From: an uncultured Planctomycetales bacterium
Lineage (GTDB): Bacteria > Planctomycetota > Phycisphaerae > UBA1845 > PWPN01
Direction of reading: 5' to 3'
Assembly (NCBI GenBank): GCA_964617025.1
Contig: CAZTVU010000015.1
Location: 1 to 42,520, forward strand
Length of the DNA stretch: 42,520 bases
A program made the position numbers and the translations under genes. Shown here piece by piece: positions 3,419 to 42,520 of the stretch. The notes below the pieces were generated by a model, which made no database searches, was not told the origin of the DNA, and was given only the letters and a program-made list of their open reading frames with translations. Within the stretch, counting starts at the first letter, position 1. Every line of letters starts with the position of its first letter.

Positions 3419-4293
3419 TGTCCTGGCGCGATCGGCCCTACGCCGACGAGGACGGGCAGCCGGAGCTTCGCCTGGCGCTGCCGCGACCCACGACGGCCGT
3501 CGTCTGGCTGCTGGTGGCCAACGGCACGGCATTCGTCGCGGACGTCATCTCACAGCATGCCGATCCCTTCTTCTGGCATCGGGTCTTCGGATTGAGCTGG
3601 AACGGCCTGTTCGGCGGTCACGTCTGGCAACCGCTGACCTACATGTTCACCCACGGCAGCGTGCTGCACCTGCTGTGCAACATGCTTGGGCTGTACATCT
3701 TTGGGATGGAGTTCGAGCGGGCGTTCGGCCGAGACCGGTTTCTCACGTTCTACGCTCTGTGCGGGCTGGTCGGCGGCATCGCCTATCTGGCCGCGCAGGC
3801 GTTCGAGTGGGTTCCGCGATCCGTCCCCCTGGTCGGAGCCAGCGGCGCGATCTACGGCCTTCTGATCGCGGCGATCATTTTCTTTCCGCACATCCGGGTC
3901 GTGCTGATCATCTTTCCGATGCCGATCCGGGTGTTCGGCCTGATCGTTGCGGGCATCCTGTTCATCCGGCTGATCAGCCCGGGAACCGTGGAGAACCTCG
4001 GCGGCGAGATCTGCCACGTCGCGGGGGCGGCGGCCGGCGTGGGGGCCCTTTACGCCTGGCGGATGATGCCGCGAATCCGCCTGGGGGCCGGGCGTCGCGC
4101 GATGCAGACGGGCGCCTGGCAGCGGAAACTCGAGCTGGAGCAGGAGGAGCAGGACGAGGTCGATCGGATCCTCGCCAAGGTGAGCGAGTCGGGCCTGCAG
4201 AGCCTCACCCGCCGTGAACGCCGCGTGCTCGCGGAGGCGACGCAGCGGCAACAGGAGCGGGACAGGCGTACGGGCCGCATCGACCGGATCTAG
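3418..4293 (+). CDS. rhomboid family intramembrane serine protease
   Basis: HxxxN motif (HLLCNML), catalytic GASGAIYG, and a TM6 His in CHVAGAAAG. ATG 3418 shares one base with the NUDIX stop (TGATG). There is a charged C-terminal extension (ILAKVSESGLQSLTRRERRVLAEA). Confidence 0.85.
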   Translation: MSWRDRPYADEDGQPELRLALPRPTTAVVWLLVANGTAFVADVISQHADPFFWHRVFGLSWNGLFGGHVWQPLTYMFTHGSVLHLLCNMLGLYIFGMEFERAFGRDRFLTFYALCGLVGGIAYLAAQAFEWVPRSVPLVGASGAIYGLLIAAIIFFPHIRVVLIIFPMPIRVFGLIVAGILFIRLISPGTVENLGGEICHVAGAAAGVGALYAWRMMPRIRLGAGRRAMQTGAWQRKLELEQEEQDEVDRILAKVSESGLQSLTRRERRVLAEATQRQQERDRRTGRIDRI

Positions 4294-12103: not shown

Positions 12104-12801
12104 CCGCAATTCCGGCATTGACCCACTACCGGCGCGGCAGTGACGTCTATGCGCATGGCGCGGCGCGTTTCGGCGTTCGGAAGACCCCCCACCGTAGATG
12201 CAGCATAAAGCCGTGGGCGTGGCCGGAGCGCAATTCGATGACGCGCCGGCGGACCGAATCCCACGGGTACTTCCGCCACGTCTATTGGGGCGACGTGTAT
12301 GCGCAGACGGCTTTGCAGAACTGGATGCAGGCGAATGCGGGCCAGCGGTACCCGTGGGACCTCTTCGATGATATCCCCCGATTTCTTGTTCTCCCGGCAA
12401 GCTTTTCCGAAAACGATCCGGCTGCGCTCGGACGATTCCGGCGACCCGCTTCACGCCATCCGTCGTCCGTCGGCGCCGTGTGGACTGCGGTGGCAACGCC
12501 ACCGCTTTGCCTTGGACGGTTCACCGTACGCTGGCACGCAGCGGCCGGCCGAGGAAAAGCGGCGGCAAGGCCGCCGCAGTCGACAACGCGCGGGCCGCGC
12601 CGCGCAGGACGGGCGGGAGGACCGCCGCCCGAGCGAAGGTCGAGGCATAGTCTTCCAGCGCAACCGACGAGCAGGACGCGTATCCTCGGGTCGCGGCCAG
12701 AGGCTAGGGTGGGAGATAGCGAGACTCCCGCCCGACCCCGACCGGCGGCGAACGGACCACGGCAGGCCGGAGGCGGCGGGCGTTCGCAGCGATCGGTTCG
12801 C

Positions 12802-29261: not shown

Positions 29262-29615
29262 TCACCGCGCGCAGTTGCACGGGGCCGGGATCAGACAGAT
29301 GAACTCGCACGGCTCCGTGCCGGTGTTGCAGAACTGGTGTTTCTCGTTCGGCGGGACATAGATCACATCGCCCGCCTTGATCGGCCGGTCGCCGTTCTCG
29401 CTCCGCGCGACGGCCGTGCCCTTCCACACGAGGATCTCGTGCTCGTAGTCGTGCGCGTGGTGCGGCGTGCAGCCGCCCGGCTCGATCTCAAAGTGGCGCA
29501 TGTGGAACTTCTCCGCCCCGTCGGCCGGTCCGATCAGGATACGGATCCGGGCGCCGACCGCGCCCTCCATGCACACAGGCTCCTGCCGATGAGCCTTGAT
29601 CGGTTGGATTCTCAT
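29262..29615 (-). CDS. cupin domain protein
   Basis: I moved the start to ATG 29615, with AAGGAG 5 nt upstream. Cupin motifs GGCTPHHAHDYEHEILVWKG and GDVIYVPPNEKHQFCN. The upstream part of the listed ORF is a translation of the repeat element. Confidence 0.8.
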   Translation of the reverse strand: MRIQPIKAHRQEPVCMEGAVGARIRILIGPADGAEKFHMRHFEIEPGGCTPHHAHDYEHEILVWKGTAVARSENGDRPIKAGDVIYVPPNEKHQFCNTGTEPCEFICLIPAPCNCAR

Positions 29616-29634
29616 GCGATCTCCTTGGCCGATC

Positions 29635-29640
29635 ATTATA
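29635..29640 (-). promoter_or_regulatory. -10 box candidate (TATAAT) for the cupin gene
   Basis: Perfect TATAAT on the minus strand, 8 nt upstream of the SD. The context TGCGGTATAAT is identical to the TPR promoter. The -35 is weak (TTGCGG at a 15-nt spacing). Confidence 0.35.
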
Positions 29641-29669
29641 CCGCAGCGTCGCGTGCCGCAACTCCGGCA

Positions 29670-29782
29670 AAGTGGAAAAATGGAAAAGTGGGAAAGTGAG
29701 AAACGCCCTTGGCGCGGGTGATATCGAAGACGCCGTCCCCGCGCCACCTTTCTCACTTTTCCACTTTCCCACTTTTCCACTT
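29670..29782. repeat. 113-bp imperfect palindrome: two inverted arrays of four tandem 8-nt units plus inner GC clamp
   Basis: Left arm 29670-29703 is AA GTGGAAAA ATGGAAAA GTGGGAAA GTGAGAAA. Right arm 29749-29782 is TTTCTCAC TTTTCCAC TTTCCCAC TTTTCCAC TT. By hand alignment, 31 of 34 positions are Watson-Crick complementary, and one mismatch is G-T. The inner clamp is TGGCGCGGG (29710-29718) with CCCGCGCCA (29738-29746). The 19-nt loop contains GATATC. Confidence 0.9.
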
Positions 29783-29831
29783 CTTGATTTCGCCGCAGGT
29801 CCCTTCGTCGCTGTTACCATCCCCGTATCGC

Positions 29832-29860
29832 TTGACCCGCCCGCGAGCCGTCCGTACAGT
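29832..29860 (+). promoter_or_regulatory. promoter candidate for URO-D-like/ndk (TTGACC-N17-TACAGT), near-leaderless
   Basis: -35 TTGACC at 29832-29837, a 17-nt spacer, and -10 TACAGT at 29855-29860. ATG 29871 is 10 nt after the -10, and there is no SD. Confidence 0.4.
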
Positions 29861-29870
29861 GCTCCCCGCG

Positions 29871-30872
29871 ATGGCAATGACCCGGATCGATCGCGTGAAG
29901 ACCGTCCTGCAGGGCCGTCGGCCCGATCGACCGCCCGTCAGCTTCTGGCACCACTTTGCCCCGGAGCAGTCCGCCGGGCCGCCGGCGATCGAGGCCCACC
30001 TGGCACACCTGAGCCGGTTCGACCTCGACTTCCTCAAGGTGATGAACGACAACGGCTATCCCCGCGACACCGCTCCGCCGGTGATCACGAGCGTCGCCGA
30101 CCTGAAGACGCTGCGGCCGCTGTCGGGCACCGAGGGCGCCTTCGCCGCGCAACTCGACGTGGTCCGCGGACTCGCCGGGCACCTCGGCGGCAGCGTCCTG
30201 TTCTGCACCACCGTGTTCAACGCCTGGGCTACGCTTCGGTCGCTCGTCGGGCCGCCCGTCGCCCGGCACGGCCCCCCGAAGATGGAGGGCTGTGACGATC
30301 GCGATGAGACGCTCAGCCGGTTCCTCAAGGAGGACCGCGCGGCGGTCGGGGCGGCGGTCGCGGTGATCGGCGAGTCGCTGGCCAACTTCGCTCGCGAGTG
30401 CATCCGCGCGGGCGCGAACGGCATCTTTCTGTCCGTTCGGGACGACTGGGTGGACCGCCCCGCAAACGGCGACGGCGTCTACGACGAACTCGTGCGGCCG
30501 ACGGACCGGCAAATCCTGGAGGCCGCCTCCGCGGGAGCGTTCAACATACTGCACATCTGCGGCCGGGCGGTGAACTTCGAGGCGTTCGCCCGTTACCCGG
30601 TCCACGTGCTCAACTGGGCCGATCGAGCGGCCGGCCCGAGCATCGCCTACGCCCGCGATCGCGTGCGGCCGGCTCTCAGCGGCGGCGTCGACAACCTCAA
30701 GGAACTCCCGCACGGCACGCCTCAACAGGTGGCCGACCAGGTTCGCGACGCGATCCGGCAGGCGCAATATCGCCCGATCCTGATCACCCCCGGCTGCACC
30801 TACGACCCCGCCGCCGTGCCCGTGGCGAATCTGCGGGCGATGGTCGAAGCGGCGCGGACCGCAACTCCATGA
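29871..30872 (+). CDS. uroporphyrinogen decarboxylase (URO-D) family protein, MtaA/CmuA-like
   Basis: I moved the start to ATG 29871 (MAMTRIDRVKTVLQGRRPDRPPVSFWHHF). URO-D-fold-like pattern throughout (DFLKVMNDNGY...ILHICGRAVNF...LITPGCTY). The specific activity is unknown. Confidence 0.75.
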   Translation: MAMTRIDRVKTVLQGRRPDRPPVSFWHHFAPEQSAGPPAIEAHLAHLSRFDLDFLKVMNDNGYPRDTAPPVITSVADLKTLRPLSGTEGAFAAQLDVVRGLAGHLGGSVLFCTTVFNAWATLRSLVGPPVARHGPPKMEGCDDRDETLSRFLKEDRAAVGAAVAVIGESLANFARECIRAGANGIFLSVRDDWVDRPANGDGVYDELVRPTDRQILEAASAGAFNILHICGRAVNFEAFARYPVHVLNWADRAAGPSIAYARDRVRPALSGGVDNLKELPHGTPQQVADQVRDAIRQAQYRPILITPGCTYDPAAVPVANLRAMVEAARTATP

Positions 30873-31369
30873 ACGCAACCACAGACCCCGGAGACAAACC
30901 GATTCCCATGGAACAGACCCTCATCATCCTGAAGCCCGATTGTGTGCAGCGCCGGCTCGTCGGCCGGATCATCAGCCGATTCGAGGAGAAGGGCCTCACG
31001 CTCGCCGCGATGAAGCTCATGCGGATATCCCGGGAGCTGGCCGATCGTCACTACGCCGTCCACAAGGGCAAGCCGTTCTACCCCGGCCTGCTCGACTACA
31101 TCACGTCCGGGCCGGTGGTGGTGATGGTCCTGGCCGGCCCGCGTGCGATCGAGGTCTGCCGCAAGCTGATGGGCCGGACCTTCGGCTACGAGGCCGAGCC
31201 CGGCACACTCCGCGGCGACTACGGCCTGAGCCGCACGTACAACCTTGTCCACGGCAGCGACGGACCCGAGTCGGCCCGCGCCGAGATCGCCCTTTACTTC
31301 GAGCCCGACGAACTGCTCTCCTACACGACCGCCGAGAGCCCGTGGGTGATCCGCCCGGACGAGGTGTAG
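30869..31369 (+). CDS. ndk: nucleoside-diphosphate kinase
   Basis: EQTLIILKPDCVQRRLVGRIISRFEEKG and the active-site block NLVHGSD. ATG 30869 forms an ATGA overlap with the URO-D-like stop and gives a 13-aa N-terminal extension. The alternative start is ATG 30908. Confidence 0.9.
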   Translation: MNATTDPGDKPIPMEQTLIILKPDCVQRRLVGRIISRFEEKGLTLAAMKLMRISRELADRHYAVHKGKPFYPGLLDYITSGPVVVMVLAGPRAIEVCRKLMGRTFGYEAEPGTLRGDYGLSRTYNLVHGSDGPESARAEIALYFEPDELLSYTTAESPWVIRPDEV

Positions 31370-39540: not shown

Positions 39541-40734
39541 TCACAACTTGTACTGCGGGATCTTCATCAGCTCGCCGTCTTTGAGCGCCGACTGATGGGC
39601 GACGATCCCGGCCACCGTCATGTTCAGGGCCTGGGCGATGTCGATCAGCGGCTTGCGGTCCTCGAGGATCGCCGTGATGAACTCGTCCATCAGATAGCCG
39701 TGTGATCCGCCGTGGCCGCCCGCCTCGACGCGCGGCGGCAGCGGAGGTCGCTGGGTCGGCGGCAGATTCTTCTCGAGGCCCTCGTACTTGCCGTAGAACG
39801 AGCCCTTCTGGCCGCGGATGCGCCCCATTTCGCCCCCCGCGCCGGGAGAATCCCAACTGACGGCCATCCGGGCCATCCCGCCTTCACTGGTGCGAAACAG
39901 CGCGATCTCGGTGCCGAAGGGGTTCTTGTAACGGTTGTTCGCGGCCTGCAGCCACGGGATGCGGCTCGGCATGCCCATGCAGCAGACCTCCGTGAAGCTG
40001 CCGCCGCTCGCCCCGATGTAATAGGCGTTGGAGTGCGTGGGGTACCACTGCGGCGGCAGGCCCTCGCGCCAGCCCTTGTACGACGGGATCGGGTCCTGCA
40101 TGTAGTGATAGTACTCGCCCTCCGAATACACCAGCTTGCCGAAGCCGCCGGCGTTGTAGATCTGCCGCATCGCATACAGATCCGCGTGGAAGTACGACGT
40201 CTCAAACAGCATGTACTTGCGGCCGCTGGTCTTGACGGCCTCAAAAAGCTTGTCGGCCTCCTCCAGAGAGCCATACACGGCCGGCACGGCCGAAGCGACG
40301 TGCTTGCCGTGTTTGAGCACCTCGATGCAGAGCCGCGCGTGACTCGGGGCGTCGGTGGCCACGAATACCGCCTCAATGCGGTCATCCTTGACCAGCTCTT
40401 CACACGACGGATACGTCTTCTCGCAGCGAACCGCCTTGGCCAGGCCGGCGCACTTTTCCGGGTCCAGATCGCTGACCGCCACCACCTCGACGTTCGGATG
40501 GTCCTGGAAGCTGAACGCCGCACCGAACCGGCAGACGCCGTAGCCGACAATGCCCACGCGAACCTTTCGATCGGAGACGGGCTTCCAGCCCTTCGATGCG
40601 TTCGGATCGGTCGGAGCCGCCTCGAAACCCTGGATCGGCTTGTCCTCCGCAGCGCCCGCCGCCCGCAACCCCATCGCGGCAGCGCCGGCGCCAACGGCCT
40701 GCAGGAACGAACGGCGTGTCGTGGATTCGTGCAT
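39541..40734 (-). CDS. twin-arginine-exported Gfo/Idh/MocA family oxidoreductase (GH109-like architecture)
   Basis: I moved the start to ATG 40734, with GGAGGA 7 nt upstream. TAT motif STTRRSFLQAVGAGAAAMG and Rossmann fingerprint VGIVGYGVCRFG. The listed N-terminal 77 aa are spurious. Confidence 0.85.
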   Translation of the reverse strand: MHESTTRRSFLQAVGAGAAAMGLRAAGAAEDKPIQGFEAAPTDPNASKGWKPVSDRKVRVGIVGYGVCRFGAAFSFQDHPNVEVVAVSDLDPEKCAGLAKAVRCEKTYPSCEELVKDDRIEAVFVATDAPSHARLCIEVLKHGKHVASAVPAVYGSLEEADKLFEAVKTSGRKYMLFETSYFHADLYAMRQIYNAGGFGKLVYSEGEYYHYMQDPIPSYKGWREGLPPQWYPTHSNAYYIGASGGSFTEVCCMGMPSRIPWLQAANNRYKNPFGTEIALFRTSEGGMARMAVSWDSPGAGGEMGRIRGQKGSFYGKYEGLEKNLPPTQRPPLPPRVEAGGHGGSHGYLMDEFITAILEDRKPLIDIAQALNMTVAGIVAHQSALKDGELMKIPQYKL

Positions 40735-41073
40735 CGCATTGTCCTCCGTAAGCGTTCTCTCCGAATACCAGCCCTTCGCAGGGAGCCGGGCTCCTCGCGA
40801 GGCGCTGGCGGCGGCTTCTCCGCCGCTCACCGCTCGGGCAAGCCGCCCTTCCGAAGCCCGGGGCTCAGCGACGACCCGTGCTCCAACGTCGCTTCCAACG
40901 TCGAGCCGACATCTTACCGTCCCGCCGATGCCGCGGGCAACCGCGGAAGCGAAGGGCCGATCCACGCCTCGAGGTCGTCGATCGTGCAGTAGGCCATGCG
41001 GGGCAATTGTCCGCCCTCACGCCGCCGCCCGGCGTTTCCGCGCACGGCCCGTCCGGGCCCCGGGCGCCGGCCT

Positions 41074-41116
41074 GGGGTTGTTCGGGTCTCGGGTTCCGGG
41101 TTCAGGGTTTCGGGGG
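41074..41116 (+). repeat. G-tract heptad repeat (GGGTYNN x4 flanked by GGGG and GGGGG), G-quadruplex-type motif
   Basis: GGGG TTGTTC GGGTCTC GGGTTCC GGGTTCA GGGTTTC GGGGG. That is six G-runs of 3 or more, with 4-6-nt loops. It straddles the stop codon (41102-41104) of the small minus-strand ORF. Confidence 0.6.
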
Positions 41117-41348: not shown

Positions 41349-42520
41349 CTACGGACCTCCGAGCCTTCTGTAGTATTCTAGCACCTTCCTCGGGAAGGTT
41401 CTACCGCCCAGGAGACCGGCGAAGACCTCCGCGACGAACTCGAGGTTGTCGCGTGCTGCCCGACCGCTGACATACGTCCGTGCCATTTCCTTTATCTCGC
41501 CGGGCATCCGCATCGCAGCGAGGGCATCGAATGCCTCTCGGCTTCCAAGGAGTCGGCGATGGCATACGTGACCTGCCTCATGCCGAATCGGATGCCGTAC
41601 GTCAGCACTGGACCACACCTTCAGCAACGCAATCTCCCTGACAGCCTTTTCCCGTCGCGATGGGATCAGGCTCCAGTAGTCTGCATCGGGATTGATGTGG
41701 ATGTCCGACCCGATCGCTCGCGCCGGTGTCGACCTCGCGCGGACGCCGAGGTCCTTGAATGCCTCGCGTGATACGATGATCCTCGCCGGAACCGAGTGCC
41801 CGGCCCACTCCAGCTCGGCGATCACGTCGTTCGCCGCCCTGGCGATGTCGACGCGACCGGCATACGACGCCGTGACGCCCTTCTTTGCCGCCCACTCCTC
41901 CTCAGCGCGCGTATCCCCCGGGAACCGATTCGCCTTCGGCGCCGCGTCGTCTCCCTTGCCGGATCGAGCCCTGCGGCGCGCTCCGGATCGACCCCCTCCG
42001 CCGTCCTGGACCAGGCGTTCCGTATCCGCATCCGCCGCCGACCGCGCGGCATCCTTCGTCAGCCCCGGCGTCTCTTTGACCACGCGGTCGAGCGTCTTGA
42101 GCCCGCTGGTCGGCGTCACGACCTGCCCGACGTCCACCAGCTTCGTCCGCAGCATCGCGGCGATCGTCTTGCCGAAGAGCCGGTCCATCTCGTACCGCGT
42201 CATCCGCTTCAGCCGCGCGCGGAGCACGTCGTTCGGCCGGTCCGGCTCGTCGAACGCCGCCTCCTCCGTCCAGAACGCGTAGTCGTGGAACGACAGGTCC
42301 ACCTCCGGCGTGCGGGTGCAGTTGCAGCCGACGTGCAGCGGGGGGATCGGGCCCCGCCCCTCGGGCCAGACCGTGTTGTGGTACATCAGGCACTCGGCGC
42401 AGACCAGGCCGCTGACCTCCGGGTGCGTCAGGTACCGCTCCCGCCCGATCTGCGAGAAGAACATATCGCCGTCCTTCGCCTTCCAGCGGAATCGATGGGC
42501 ATGGCGGAACACCTTCGAGC
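41349..42520 (-). CDS. phage head-morphogenesis (MuF / SPP1 gp7)-like protein fused to a C-terminal HExxH domain, N-terminus off the right edge
   Basis: The frame is open to the window edge; the listed GTG 42512 is probably internal. LVCAECLMYHNTVWPEGRGPIPPLHVGCNCTRT resembles the C..C...PP.H..C.C end of MuF/gp7 domains, from my recollection of the family. A Gly/Arg linker follows. The ~200-aa C-terminal domain contains IRHEAGHVCH (HExxH) and a downstream EFVAEVF. GC drops to about 57-62% over 41341-41700, versus about 72% at 42001-42060, by hand count. Confidence 0.7.
   Translation of the reverse strand, partial: SKVFRHAHRFRWKAKDGDMFFSQIGRERYLTHPEVSGLVCAECLMYHNTVWPEGRGPIPPLHVGCNCTRTPEVDLSFHDYAFWTEEAAFDEPDRPNDVLRARLKRMTRYEMDRLFGKTIAAMLRTKLVDVGQVVTPTSGLKTLDRVVKETPGLTKDAARSAADADTERLVQDGGGGRSGARRRARSGKGDDAAPKANRFPGDTRAEEEWAAKKGVTASYAGRVDIARAANDVIAELEWAGHSVPARIIVSREAFKDLGVRARSTPARAIGSDIHINPDADYWSLIPSRREKAVREIALLKVWSSADVRHPIRHEAGHVCHRRLLGSREAFDALAAMRMPGEIKEMARTYVSGRAARDNLEFVAEVFAGLLGGRTFPRKVLEYYRRLGGP

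Follow-up and report, generated by a model that had tools for sequence, protein, structure and literature searches.

Inverted octanucleotide repeat arrays around a GC-rich stem-loop between two divergent promoters of a Planctomycetota contig

Structure and composition of the palindrome

The window analysed here is a 42,520-nt stretch of DNA from an uncultured Planctomycetales bacterium (assembly GCA_964617025.1, contig CAZTVU010000015.1). Between a cupin gene on its minus strand and a URO-D-family gene on its plus strand lies a 113-bp palindrome at 29670-29782. The palindrome was first described from the sequence letters alone (the original prediction) as two arms of four 8-mers each with 31 of 34 positions complementary, a 9-bp GC clamp and a 19-nt loop containing GATATC. 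Sequence reading, a repeat finder and Tandem Repeats Finder (TRF) all agreed on this description. We identify the element, with high confidence, as a lineage-specific extragenic palindrome in which inverted octanucleotide (GTGRRAAA) simple-sequence repeat (SSR) arrays surround a unique GC-rich stem-loop. With equally high confidence we place it among the long SSRs with 7-8-nt units, a widespread class that in several phyla is often arranged as inverted pairs. The parts of the element were:

29670-29703, plus strand: left arm, AAGTGGAAAAATGGAAAAGTGGGAAAGTGAGAAA (TRF period 8, 4.2 copies)
29670-29703, plus strand: units of the left arm from the outside in, AA followed by GTGGAAAA ATGGAAAA GTGGGAAA GTGAGAAA; A-rich and purine-rich
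29704-29709: left linker CGCCCT, an asymmetric internal loop in predicted folds because the right-hand linker is only 2 nt
29710-29718, plus strand: left half of the GC clamp, TGGCGCGGG, 9/9 complementary to the right half
29719-29737: central loop of 19 nt, including GATATC at 29720-29725 and partly self-paired in predicted folds
29738-29746, plus strand: right half of the GC clamp, CCCGCGCCA, 9/9 complementary to the left half
29749-29782: right arm, TTTCTCACTTTTCCACTTTCCCACTTTTCCACTT (TRF period 8, 4.8 copies)
29749-29782, minus strand: units of the right arm, AA followed by GTGGAAAA GTGGGAAA GTGGAAAA GTGAGAAA; T-rich and pyrimidine-rich on the plus strand

The two arms were 34 nt each, 45 nt apart and 91% complementary (31/34). 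Each arm contained four units with the consensus GTGRRAAA, joined head-to-tail without spacers at start-to-start spacings of 8, 8 and 8; the repeat finder reported four copies in the left arm and three or more in the right. All three mismatches between the arms fell in units 2 and 3, and the order of these units differed between the arms. The element was ordered as an A-rich arm, a GC hairpin and a T-rich arm and reads alike on both strands; the A-rich arm is able to pair with the U-rich arm, extending the stem.

The purine/pyrimidine asymmetry and local A/T richness described earlier were also found: the left arm was 89% purine, and the region around the element had 52-60% GC against 68.5% for the window. 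The two-unit pattern GTGRRAAARTGRRAAA, with up to two mismatches, matched six times in the window, always within the element, and this search revealed no copy of the GTGRRAAA element elsewhere in the 42.5 kb. Shuffled sequence gave a mean of 0.05 two-unit matches, and none of 100 shuffles reached six. The arms are therefore head-to-tail arrays of a unit in the 5-11-nt range that are longer than chance (6 matches vs 0.05 expected), as in long SSRs, and the same unit on opposite strands 45 nt apart makes them an inverted pair of SSR arrays.

The description of the element as hairpin-forming was supported by folds of both strands. The predicted RNA fold was -73.5 kcal/mol (z = -8.3) for the plus strand and -83.3 kcal/mol (z = -9.6) for the minus strand, and the single-strand DNA fold was -39.7 kcal/mol (z = -9.4). 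None of 200 shuffles folded as stably as the element.

Several identities were rejected from the units themselves. As the original prediction had argued, the element is no CRISPR array: its 8-nt units abut without spacers, whereas CRISPR arrays have 23-50-nt repeats with unique spacers of similar size. A G-quadruplex (G4) was rejected on the 8-nt unit and on the presence of only three runs of two or more G per arm, and H-DNA was rejected since every unit contains one T that breaks its run of purines.

A 6-bp direct repeat, GCCGCA, was present at 29655-29660 and 29792-29797, 9-10 nt outside each arm. In DNA of 68% GC this repeat is probably due to chance, and it is not positioned like a target-site duplication.

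Promoters, neighbouring genes and related loci

The genes and promoters on either side of the palindrome were:

29265-29615, minus strand: Cupin_2 protein of 117 aa, left of the element
29635-29640, minus strand: cupin promoter -10 box TATAAT, read from the sequence; ATTATA is kept in relatives
29832-29860, plus strand: URO-D/ndk promoter TTGACC-N17-TACAGT, from a promoter scan; the motif is kept in six related loci
29871-30869, plus strand: URO-D-family protein, right of the element
30908-31366, plus strand: NDK, downstream of URO-D

Both flanking genes pointed away from the element, as first noted, and the two promoters predicted for them gained support from motifs conserved in related loci. 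The statement that the palindrome sits precisely between these promoters was right as to the interval and wrong as to the midpoint: its centre (29726) was about 88 bp from the cupin -10 box and about 108 bp from the URO-D -35 box. The left arm started 30 bp upstream of the cupin -10 box and spanned about -42 to -75 of the cupin promoter, counted from the inferred start site, and the right arm ended 49 bp upstream of the URO-D -35 box. Both arms lay upstream of the core elements of the two promoters and overlapped neither -35 nor -10 boxes. The URO-D -10 box (TACAGT, 29855-29860) ended 10 nt before the ATG at 29871 with no Shine-Dalgarno sequence between them, so the URO-D/ndk mRNA is probably leaderless or nearly so. 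Longer URO-D leaders were present in three relatives (L124, L146 and L150; loci outside the window carry L numbers).

The remaining genes of the window were ordinary chromosomal genes: DXP reductoisomerase, glycosidases, UvrC, an ABC/MacB transporter, a SpoU methylase and a class II aldolase. No transposase, REP-associated tyrosine transposase (RAYT), replication or regulator gene was present among the neighbours and the scanned window open reading frames (ORFs), which were large ORFs selected by GC content at third codon positions (GC3). The window had no skew switch. Plasmid iterons or a replication origin were rejected on these housekeeping surroundings, on the absence of a rep gene among the scanned ORFs and of a skew switch, and on unit length (8 nt vs 17-22 bp).

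Homologues of the window URO-D protein came from metagenome-assembled genomes (MAGs) of Phycisphaerae/Planctomycetota, the closest being 77% identical, which marks the window as a Phycisphaerae-like contig lacking a close relative in the collections searched; exact-protein look-ups of the window cupin, NDK and URO-D proteins returned no record. Seven URO-D neighbourhoods with protein identities of 70-77% were compared: L120, L123, L124, L143, L146, L148 and L150. L124 and L125 were identical sequences, as were L120-L122, and were uninformative as extra samples. L120, L124 and L146 had the gene order cupin (minus), Abhydrolase_7 (plus), URO-D (plus) and NDK (plus), and L120 also had a CobA gene between cupin and URO-D. 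In L150 the cupin gene (minus) directly adjoined URO-D (plus), as in the window, which argues against a mis-assembly junction in the window. L123 and L148 had other genes before or after URO-D and NDK, and L143 (70% identity) had a different neighbourhood without a cupin gene.

The promoters were shared among these loci. The window, L120, L124 and L150 had ATTATA (TATAAT on the cupin strand) at a distance of 19-25 nt from the cupin start; in L146 this position read ATTGTA. TTGACS-N17-TAsAGT was found upstream of URO-D in the window and in L120, L123, L124, L146, L148 and L150. Alignment similarity ended just beyond the cupin -10 box, and on the other side a few bases directly upstream of the URO-D -35 box were common to the window, L124 and L146. 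The original prediction had suggested looking for conservation or compensatory changes in orthologous cupin/URO-D intergenic regions. No such conservation was found: the approximately 175 bp between the promoters, palindrome included, had no counterpart in relatives, and a GTGRRAAA array was absent from all compared URO-D neighbourhoods. The element is therefore lineage-specific, and both promoters operate without it in the relatives.

One relative contained a hairpin of the same architecture in another spacer. In L124, whose URO-D is 77% identical to that of the window, a 240-nt hairpin at 3686-3936 lay between URO-D and NDK and was built of an octamer unit other than GTGRRAAA. About nine GTTGCTCC units in one arm faced about ten AACGGATC/AACGGGAT units in the other, with 7/8 positions paired per unit (-125 kcal/mol, z = -7.0). 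The left arm of this hairpin was also seen at L125 1679-1730. Its right arm prolongs an ACGGA-rich leader common to all relatives upstream of NDK, which suggests local amplification of a pre-existing sequence.

The gene order of L120, L124 and L146 also bears on a relic terminator of a lost Abhydrolase_7 gene. This candidate was weakened, since no Abhydrolase_7 remnant was present at 29616-29870 of the window and L150 has the cupin/URO-D adjacency without any array.

A structured small RNA, one of four roles proposed in the original prediction, might be transcribed divergently from the cupin promoter region and end within the hairpin. Such an RNA would fit the very stable hairpin predicted on either strand, and the symmetric -10 region (ATTATA/TATAAT) could fire both ways. 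No promoter was called for a transcript of this kind, however, the structure lacked conservation in the relatives, and Rfam gave no match at gathering thresholds. A permissive Rfam search returned plant microRNA hairpin models only, at 28-40 bits against gathering scores of 72-137, and these were judged spurious. The Rfam searches thus lent no support to a small RNA, which we regard as very improbable.

The wider class of octamer-array hairpins

When 185,579 species genomes were scanned for three or more tandem GTGRRAAA units, at least 119 loci were found. The class statistics below were drawn from the listed loci, which were chosen by this one unit type. The listed matches were mainly from Acidobacteriota (Pyrinomonadaceae, Blastocatellia, Vicinamibacterales), Planctomycetota and Verrucomicrobiota, with others from Bacteroidota (Prevotella, Bacteroidales, Saprospiraceae), Poribacteria and Desulfospira, and several MAGs supplied 2-4 loci each among the matches listed. 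In many of these loci a short stem-loop of unique sequence followed (GTGRAAAA)n and preceded (TTTTYCAC)n. Two were high-GC lookalikes of the window copy: L010 (Vicinamibacterales, 66% GC) and L116 (Limisphaerales, 65% GC).

The centres were unique to each listed locus, even among loci of one MAG; the members of the class are thus not copies of one mobile element. The 20-nt centre of the window element had no related context in 241 million metagenome records, where its 17 matches were all in unrelated coding sequence. A search for tandem units beyond the window, as the original prediction had envisaged, thus had a divided outcome: tandem units recur in other genomes and the window's own centre was not found elsewhere. 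Likewise, a dispersed family resembling repetitive extragenic palindromic (REP) elements or transposable elements of the miniature inverted-repeat type (MITEs) came closest among the four proposed roles, in that the arrays and their inverted layout occur in many genomes, but it failed on the locus-unique centres.

The same observations bear on insertion of a non-autonomous mobile element, of MITE or REP/REPIN (paired REP) type, between the promoters. The palindromic structure, the presence of the element in the window and its absence from L150 despite the same gene adjacency, and the GCCGCA repeat outside the arms would all be in keeping with an insertion. Against it stand the single occurrence in the window and the differing class centres, those of loci in the same MAG included, as well as the metagenome result for the window centre. 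The claim that the locus shows no transposase or target duplication also stood, for the scanned ORFs contained no transposase and the GCCGCA repeat was unconvincing. A MITE was rejected on the centres and on the lack of a duplication directly at the arm ends. REP elements and bacterial interspersed mosaic elements (BIMEs) resemble the class as imperfect intergenic palindromes that typically follow stop codons or lie between convergent genes, in many copies per genome. They differ in being 20-40 nt long with a conserved family sequence, a GTAG/CGTC head and a RAYT transposase, whereas the window arms are simple-sequence arrays around a unique centre with no tetranucleotide head. This identity was rejected on the missing head, the single window copy and the absence of a transposase-like gene or RAYT among the scanned window ORFs. 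In viral contigs the palindromic pattern had 0 matches and the three-unit pattern 25, which gives no sign of phage origin. Taken together, we consider a mobile element very improbable.

With the GTGRRAAA-like arrays removed, TRF on the listed loci found 90 arrays of period 7 and 59 of period 8, with many different units; periods 9, 10 and 12 accounted for 28, 13 and 34 arrays, respectively. The unit sequence varied freely between listed loci, related genomes included (L124). In some runs the unit or period switched midway: L056 had (GTGGAAAA)4 followed by (GTGGGAA)8, and L031 had a GTGAGAAA array followed by a GTTCCAGR array.

Inverted pairing was a feature of the class. An inverted partner (reverse complement with at least 80% identity within 250 nt) was found for 68 of 341 period-7/8 arrays, against 2 of 335 in a distant control drawn from regions more than 1 kb away. 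A complement-only control was unusable: for a tandem GTGAAAAA array, complement and reverse complement are cyclic permutations of one another. In close pairs with A/T asymmetry the A-rich arm came first 31 times and the T-rich arm twice (p about 1e-7, a value from counts of 33 vs 2 that still included two duplicate rows). This orientation bias is real and no strand artefact, since a palindrome reads alike on both strands.

The palindromes were also positioned at gene ends. The stop codon of a long ORF (mostly >200 codons) adjoined 25 of the 31 A-first palindromes, on both sides in 10 of them, with a median gap of 5 nt between stop codon and element. Shifted control positions adjoined a stop codon in 37 of 87 cases (p = 3e-4), and the count for the palindromes is to be read with the caveat that GTGA-containing units carry TGA in every frame, so that an ORF cannot extend far into an array. 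The crude ORF caller used here was reliable only below about 58% GC and mis-calls genes in the 68% GC window; for this reason context counts were limited to loci below 58% GC or to a GC3 filter. Among the listed loci below 58% GC, convergent gaps held 10 of the 25 classified palindromes, compared with 58 of 336 background gaps (p = 0.013). At several convergent pairs (L018, L062, L075 and L094) the element was the whole intergenic region.

The dismissal of a terminator in the original prediction, on the grounds that both flanking genes point away, therefore holds for the context of the window copy and does not hold for the class, in which 25 of 31 A-first palindromes adjoin a stop codon.

The position and variability of the class bear equally on an operator array, a role the original prediction had put forward as an iteron-like array for an oligomerising regulator. 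A ribbon-helix-helix-type protein might bind each 8-bp unit cooperatively and so control both promoters. Ribbon-helix-helix proteins recognise tandem 7-8-bp units, direct and inverted, in promoter regions: MetJ binds tandem 8-bp metboxes, omega binds 7-bp heptads and ParG binds ACTC boxes with 4-bp spacers. By analogy, the head-to-tail and inverted 8-bp units of the window element, between two promoters, would suit proteins of this kind. Unlike the MetJ, omega and ParG arrays, however, the element has no cognate gene near it and does not overlap the core promoter, its class lies at gene 3' ends, mostly after stop codons, and its units are unconserved. No ribbon-helix-helix, helix-turn-helix or other regulator was present among the neighbours and scanned ORFs, both promoter motifs are kept in relatives that lack the array, and a unit that varies by locus, even within one clade, misfits a sequence-specific binder. 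A ribbon-helix-helix operator array was rejected on the position of the arms upstream of both -35 boxes and on the missing regulator. The reading as a specific operator is unsupported, and we judge it highly unlikely.

Three Prevotella loci had the reversed order, (TTTYCCAC)3 then (GTGGRAAA)3, about 175 bp apart: L036 6301-6535, L077 123-351 and L085 7071-7301. The arrays of L036 and L085, the two whose internal sequences were read, surrounded DNA of extreme AT richness that had a core in common. These two loci lay between divergent genes and L077 at a contig edge. These reversed pairs resemble the invertible promoter segments of Bacteroidales that are flanked by inverted repeats, and may be analogous to them.

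Origin, possible effect and precedents

The architecture, which the original prediction did not recognise, has precedents in long SSRs and in the inverted heptamer pairs of Xanthomonas (PMC4692102). A literature text search with six two-unit octamer strings returned no match. As summarised in PMC4679880, Mrazek et al. (2007) described long SSRs with units of 1-11 nt, among which heptamers were most abundant, and proposed polymerase slippage as their source. The long SSRs of that summary, including the heptamer arrays (short tandemly repeated repetitive sequences, STRR; TAACTGA) of cyanobacteria or Beggiatoaceae, are head-to-tail arrays of 5-11-nt units that are mostly intergenic and have a patchy distribution over the phyla. 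Polymerase slippage is their proposed source, and periods 7 and 8 dominate the loci listed here. They differ in being, as the summary presents them, mostly single direct arrays; one inverted set was reported, and TAACTGA arrays lie shortly before start codons. The window element is defined by the pairing of inverted arrays around a unique hairpin, and octamers are not singled out in such summaries.

Rehm et al. (2015; PMC4692102) described two Xanthomonas genomes with, in each, about 185 arrays of the heptamer GGGAATC. Arrays of four units were commonest, 70-75 inverted pairs were formed, the average distance from the upstream ORF was 28 nt, and 16% of arrays were in convergent and 7-8% in divergent gaps. 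Like the class described here, the Xanthomonas pairs consist of two close tandem arrays of about four units on opposite strands, capable of folding into a cruciform or stem-loop; they are dispersed through intergenic DNA, usually near an upstream stop codon, enriched between convergent genes and rare between divergent ones. Unlike the window unit, theirs is a 7-nt, G-rich and G4-capable sequence, whereas a G4 is unlikely for the 8-nt unit. The window element is neither a G-rich heptamer array nor located just downstream of a stop codon. It is an octamer, non-G4 counterpart of the Xanthomonas pairs, in another phylum and in the rare divergent-promoter context.

The arrays may have grown by replication slippage of a unit consisting of an A-tract plus the base of the stem, on either side of the hairpin. 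Each arm would have gained one unit independently, at different places. Independent gain would explain the differing order of units 2 and 3 and the placement of the mismatches.

An A-rich tract upstream of a hairpin, mirrored by a U-tract, is the hallmark of bidirectional terminators (PMC12207403), and intrinsic terminators with very long stems exist, e.g., TerR of pLS20 (PMC10325885). The class has the position and geometry of a bidirectional terminator: it shares the order of A-rich tract, hairpin and T-rich tract, and its members fill whole convergent gaps at listed loci. Bidirectional terminators differ in having tracts of 7-9 nt, against 34-nt octamer arrays broken by GTG/CAC in the window element, which has the A-rich/GC hairpin/T-rich layout with neither the short loop nor the T content of at least 5/8, and has no gene upstream of it.

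Whatever its effect, the window copy is atypical of the class in being situated upstream of a pair of divergent promoters that are both conserved. If it has one, it would most likely be that of a two-way barrier at the RNA level, held with moderate to low confidence, by which stray or divergent transcripts would be stopped before they reach the opposite promoter region. A transcript crossing the element would contain about 45 bp of duplex and would be a likely RNase III substrate. Possibly, the A/T-rich left arm (about -42 to -75) also provides the cupin promoter with an UP-like element as a side effect. For the explanation as a whole, slippage-type inverted arrays that form at most a two-way transcription barrier, we estimate a probability of about 45%.

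A number of observations weigh against this explanation. The genes on either side of the window copy face it with their 5' ends, the two conserved promoters are both outside it, and no known transcript crosses it. Its 19-nt loop exceeds that of canonical terminators (3-8 nt), and after the clamp T occupies 4/8 positions on the plus strand and 2/8 on the minus strand (canonical, at least 5/8). A simple E. coli-style terminator scan did not call the window element, nor L010, L075, L094 and L116; the stems are AU-rich or the loops long. The element was absent from L120, L124, L146, L148 and L150 (URO-D 72-77% identical), and, with the element absent in every relative compared, purifying selection shows no sign and a neutral slippage product would look no different. 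The putative terminator role of the class would follow from its position and geometry. The copy search in the source genome covered the 42.5-kb window, and the class figures come from selection by one unit type and a crude ORF caller.

The element could instead be a neutral by-product, formed purely by slippage and switching of templates where a small hairpin already existed, without function and free to decay or change length. The five related loci without the element, including L150 with its equal cupin/URO-D adjacency, agree with such an origin, as do the placement of the element where no gene ends and a terminator is unneeded, the weak T-tracts after the clamp, and the scatter of arrays with varied units over related and unrelated genomes. 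Slippage is also the published explanation for arrays of 5-11-nt units, in the account of Mrazek et al. (2007) given in PMC4679880. Less easily explained are the equal arms (4 + 4 units) with 31/34 complementarity despite apparently independent unit gains, and the 31:2 orientation bias and stop-codon adjacency of the class. The bias and the adjacency point to selection or a directed mechanism acting on the class, even if not on the window copy. We regard the neutral origin as somewhat unlikely, though nearly as likely as a two-way barrier.

A role at the DNA level would be physically reasonable: a cruciform extruded by negative supercoiling that accumulates between the two outward-transcribed genes might couple or buffer the two divergent promoters, acting as a supercoil sink, with the left arm an UP-like A/T tract for the cupin promoter. 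The stable DNA fold (-39.7 kcal/mol), the location between two conserved outward-facing promoters, and the A/T-rich left arm at about -42 to -75 in 68.5% GC DNA would suit this role. By established cruciform kinetics, however, a non-palindromic centre, here of 19 nt, and asymmetric linkers disfavour extrusion. Other members of the class are located at the 3' ends of genes rather than between promoters, the relatives use the same promoters without the element, and the left arm matches the UP-element consensus poorly. We therefore consider a DNA-level role decidedly unlikely.

A broader proposal is a functional class across phyla, among them Acidobacteriota, Planctomycetota/Verrucomicrobiota and Bacteroidota. 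Its members would be self-extending bidirectional terminators, with arms grown by slippage and kept symmetric by selection, or arrays recognised by an oligomerising nucleic-acid binder, each subunit of which would read one unit; in the window such an element would have been co-opted as an insulator or operator shared by the two promoters. This proposal appears unlikely.

The single window copy is of low importance, being lineage-specific and of no demonstrated effect, and 7-8-nt SSR arrays have been known since 2007 with no agreed function. The regularities of the class are more interesting than the single copy: inverted pairing, the 31:2 arm order and the median of 5 nt to the stop codon at the listed loci recur across poorly studied phyla. 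They suggest the hypothesis that these palindromes serve as bidirectional terminators or 3'-end hairpins in lineages with largely uncharted terminators. If this is true, operons and 3' ends would be annotated better in Acidobacteriota, Planctomycetota and Bacteroidota, and the palindromes would be an example from nature of terminators growing longer through slippage.

Two further repeats were seen in the window. A heptamer array, TTCGGGT x4.9 (77% matches), at 41081-41114 was the only other 7/8-nt array in intergenic window DNA; it lay inside a 380-bp gap flanked by minus-strand genes at 39544-40965 and 41352-42512. At 12473-12591, in a gene-free stretch of about 830 bp, two alike GC-rich hairpins, GCGGTGGCAACGCCACCGC and GCGGCGGCAAGGCCGCCGC, stood 50 nt apart and jointly scored as a 47-nt imperfect inverted repeat (77%).

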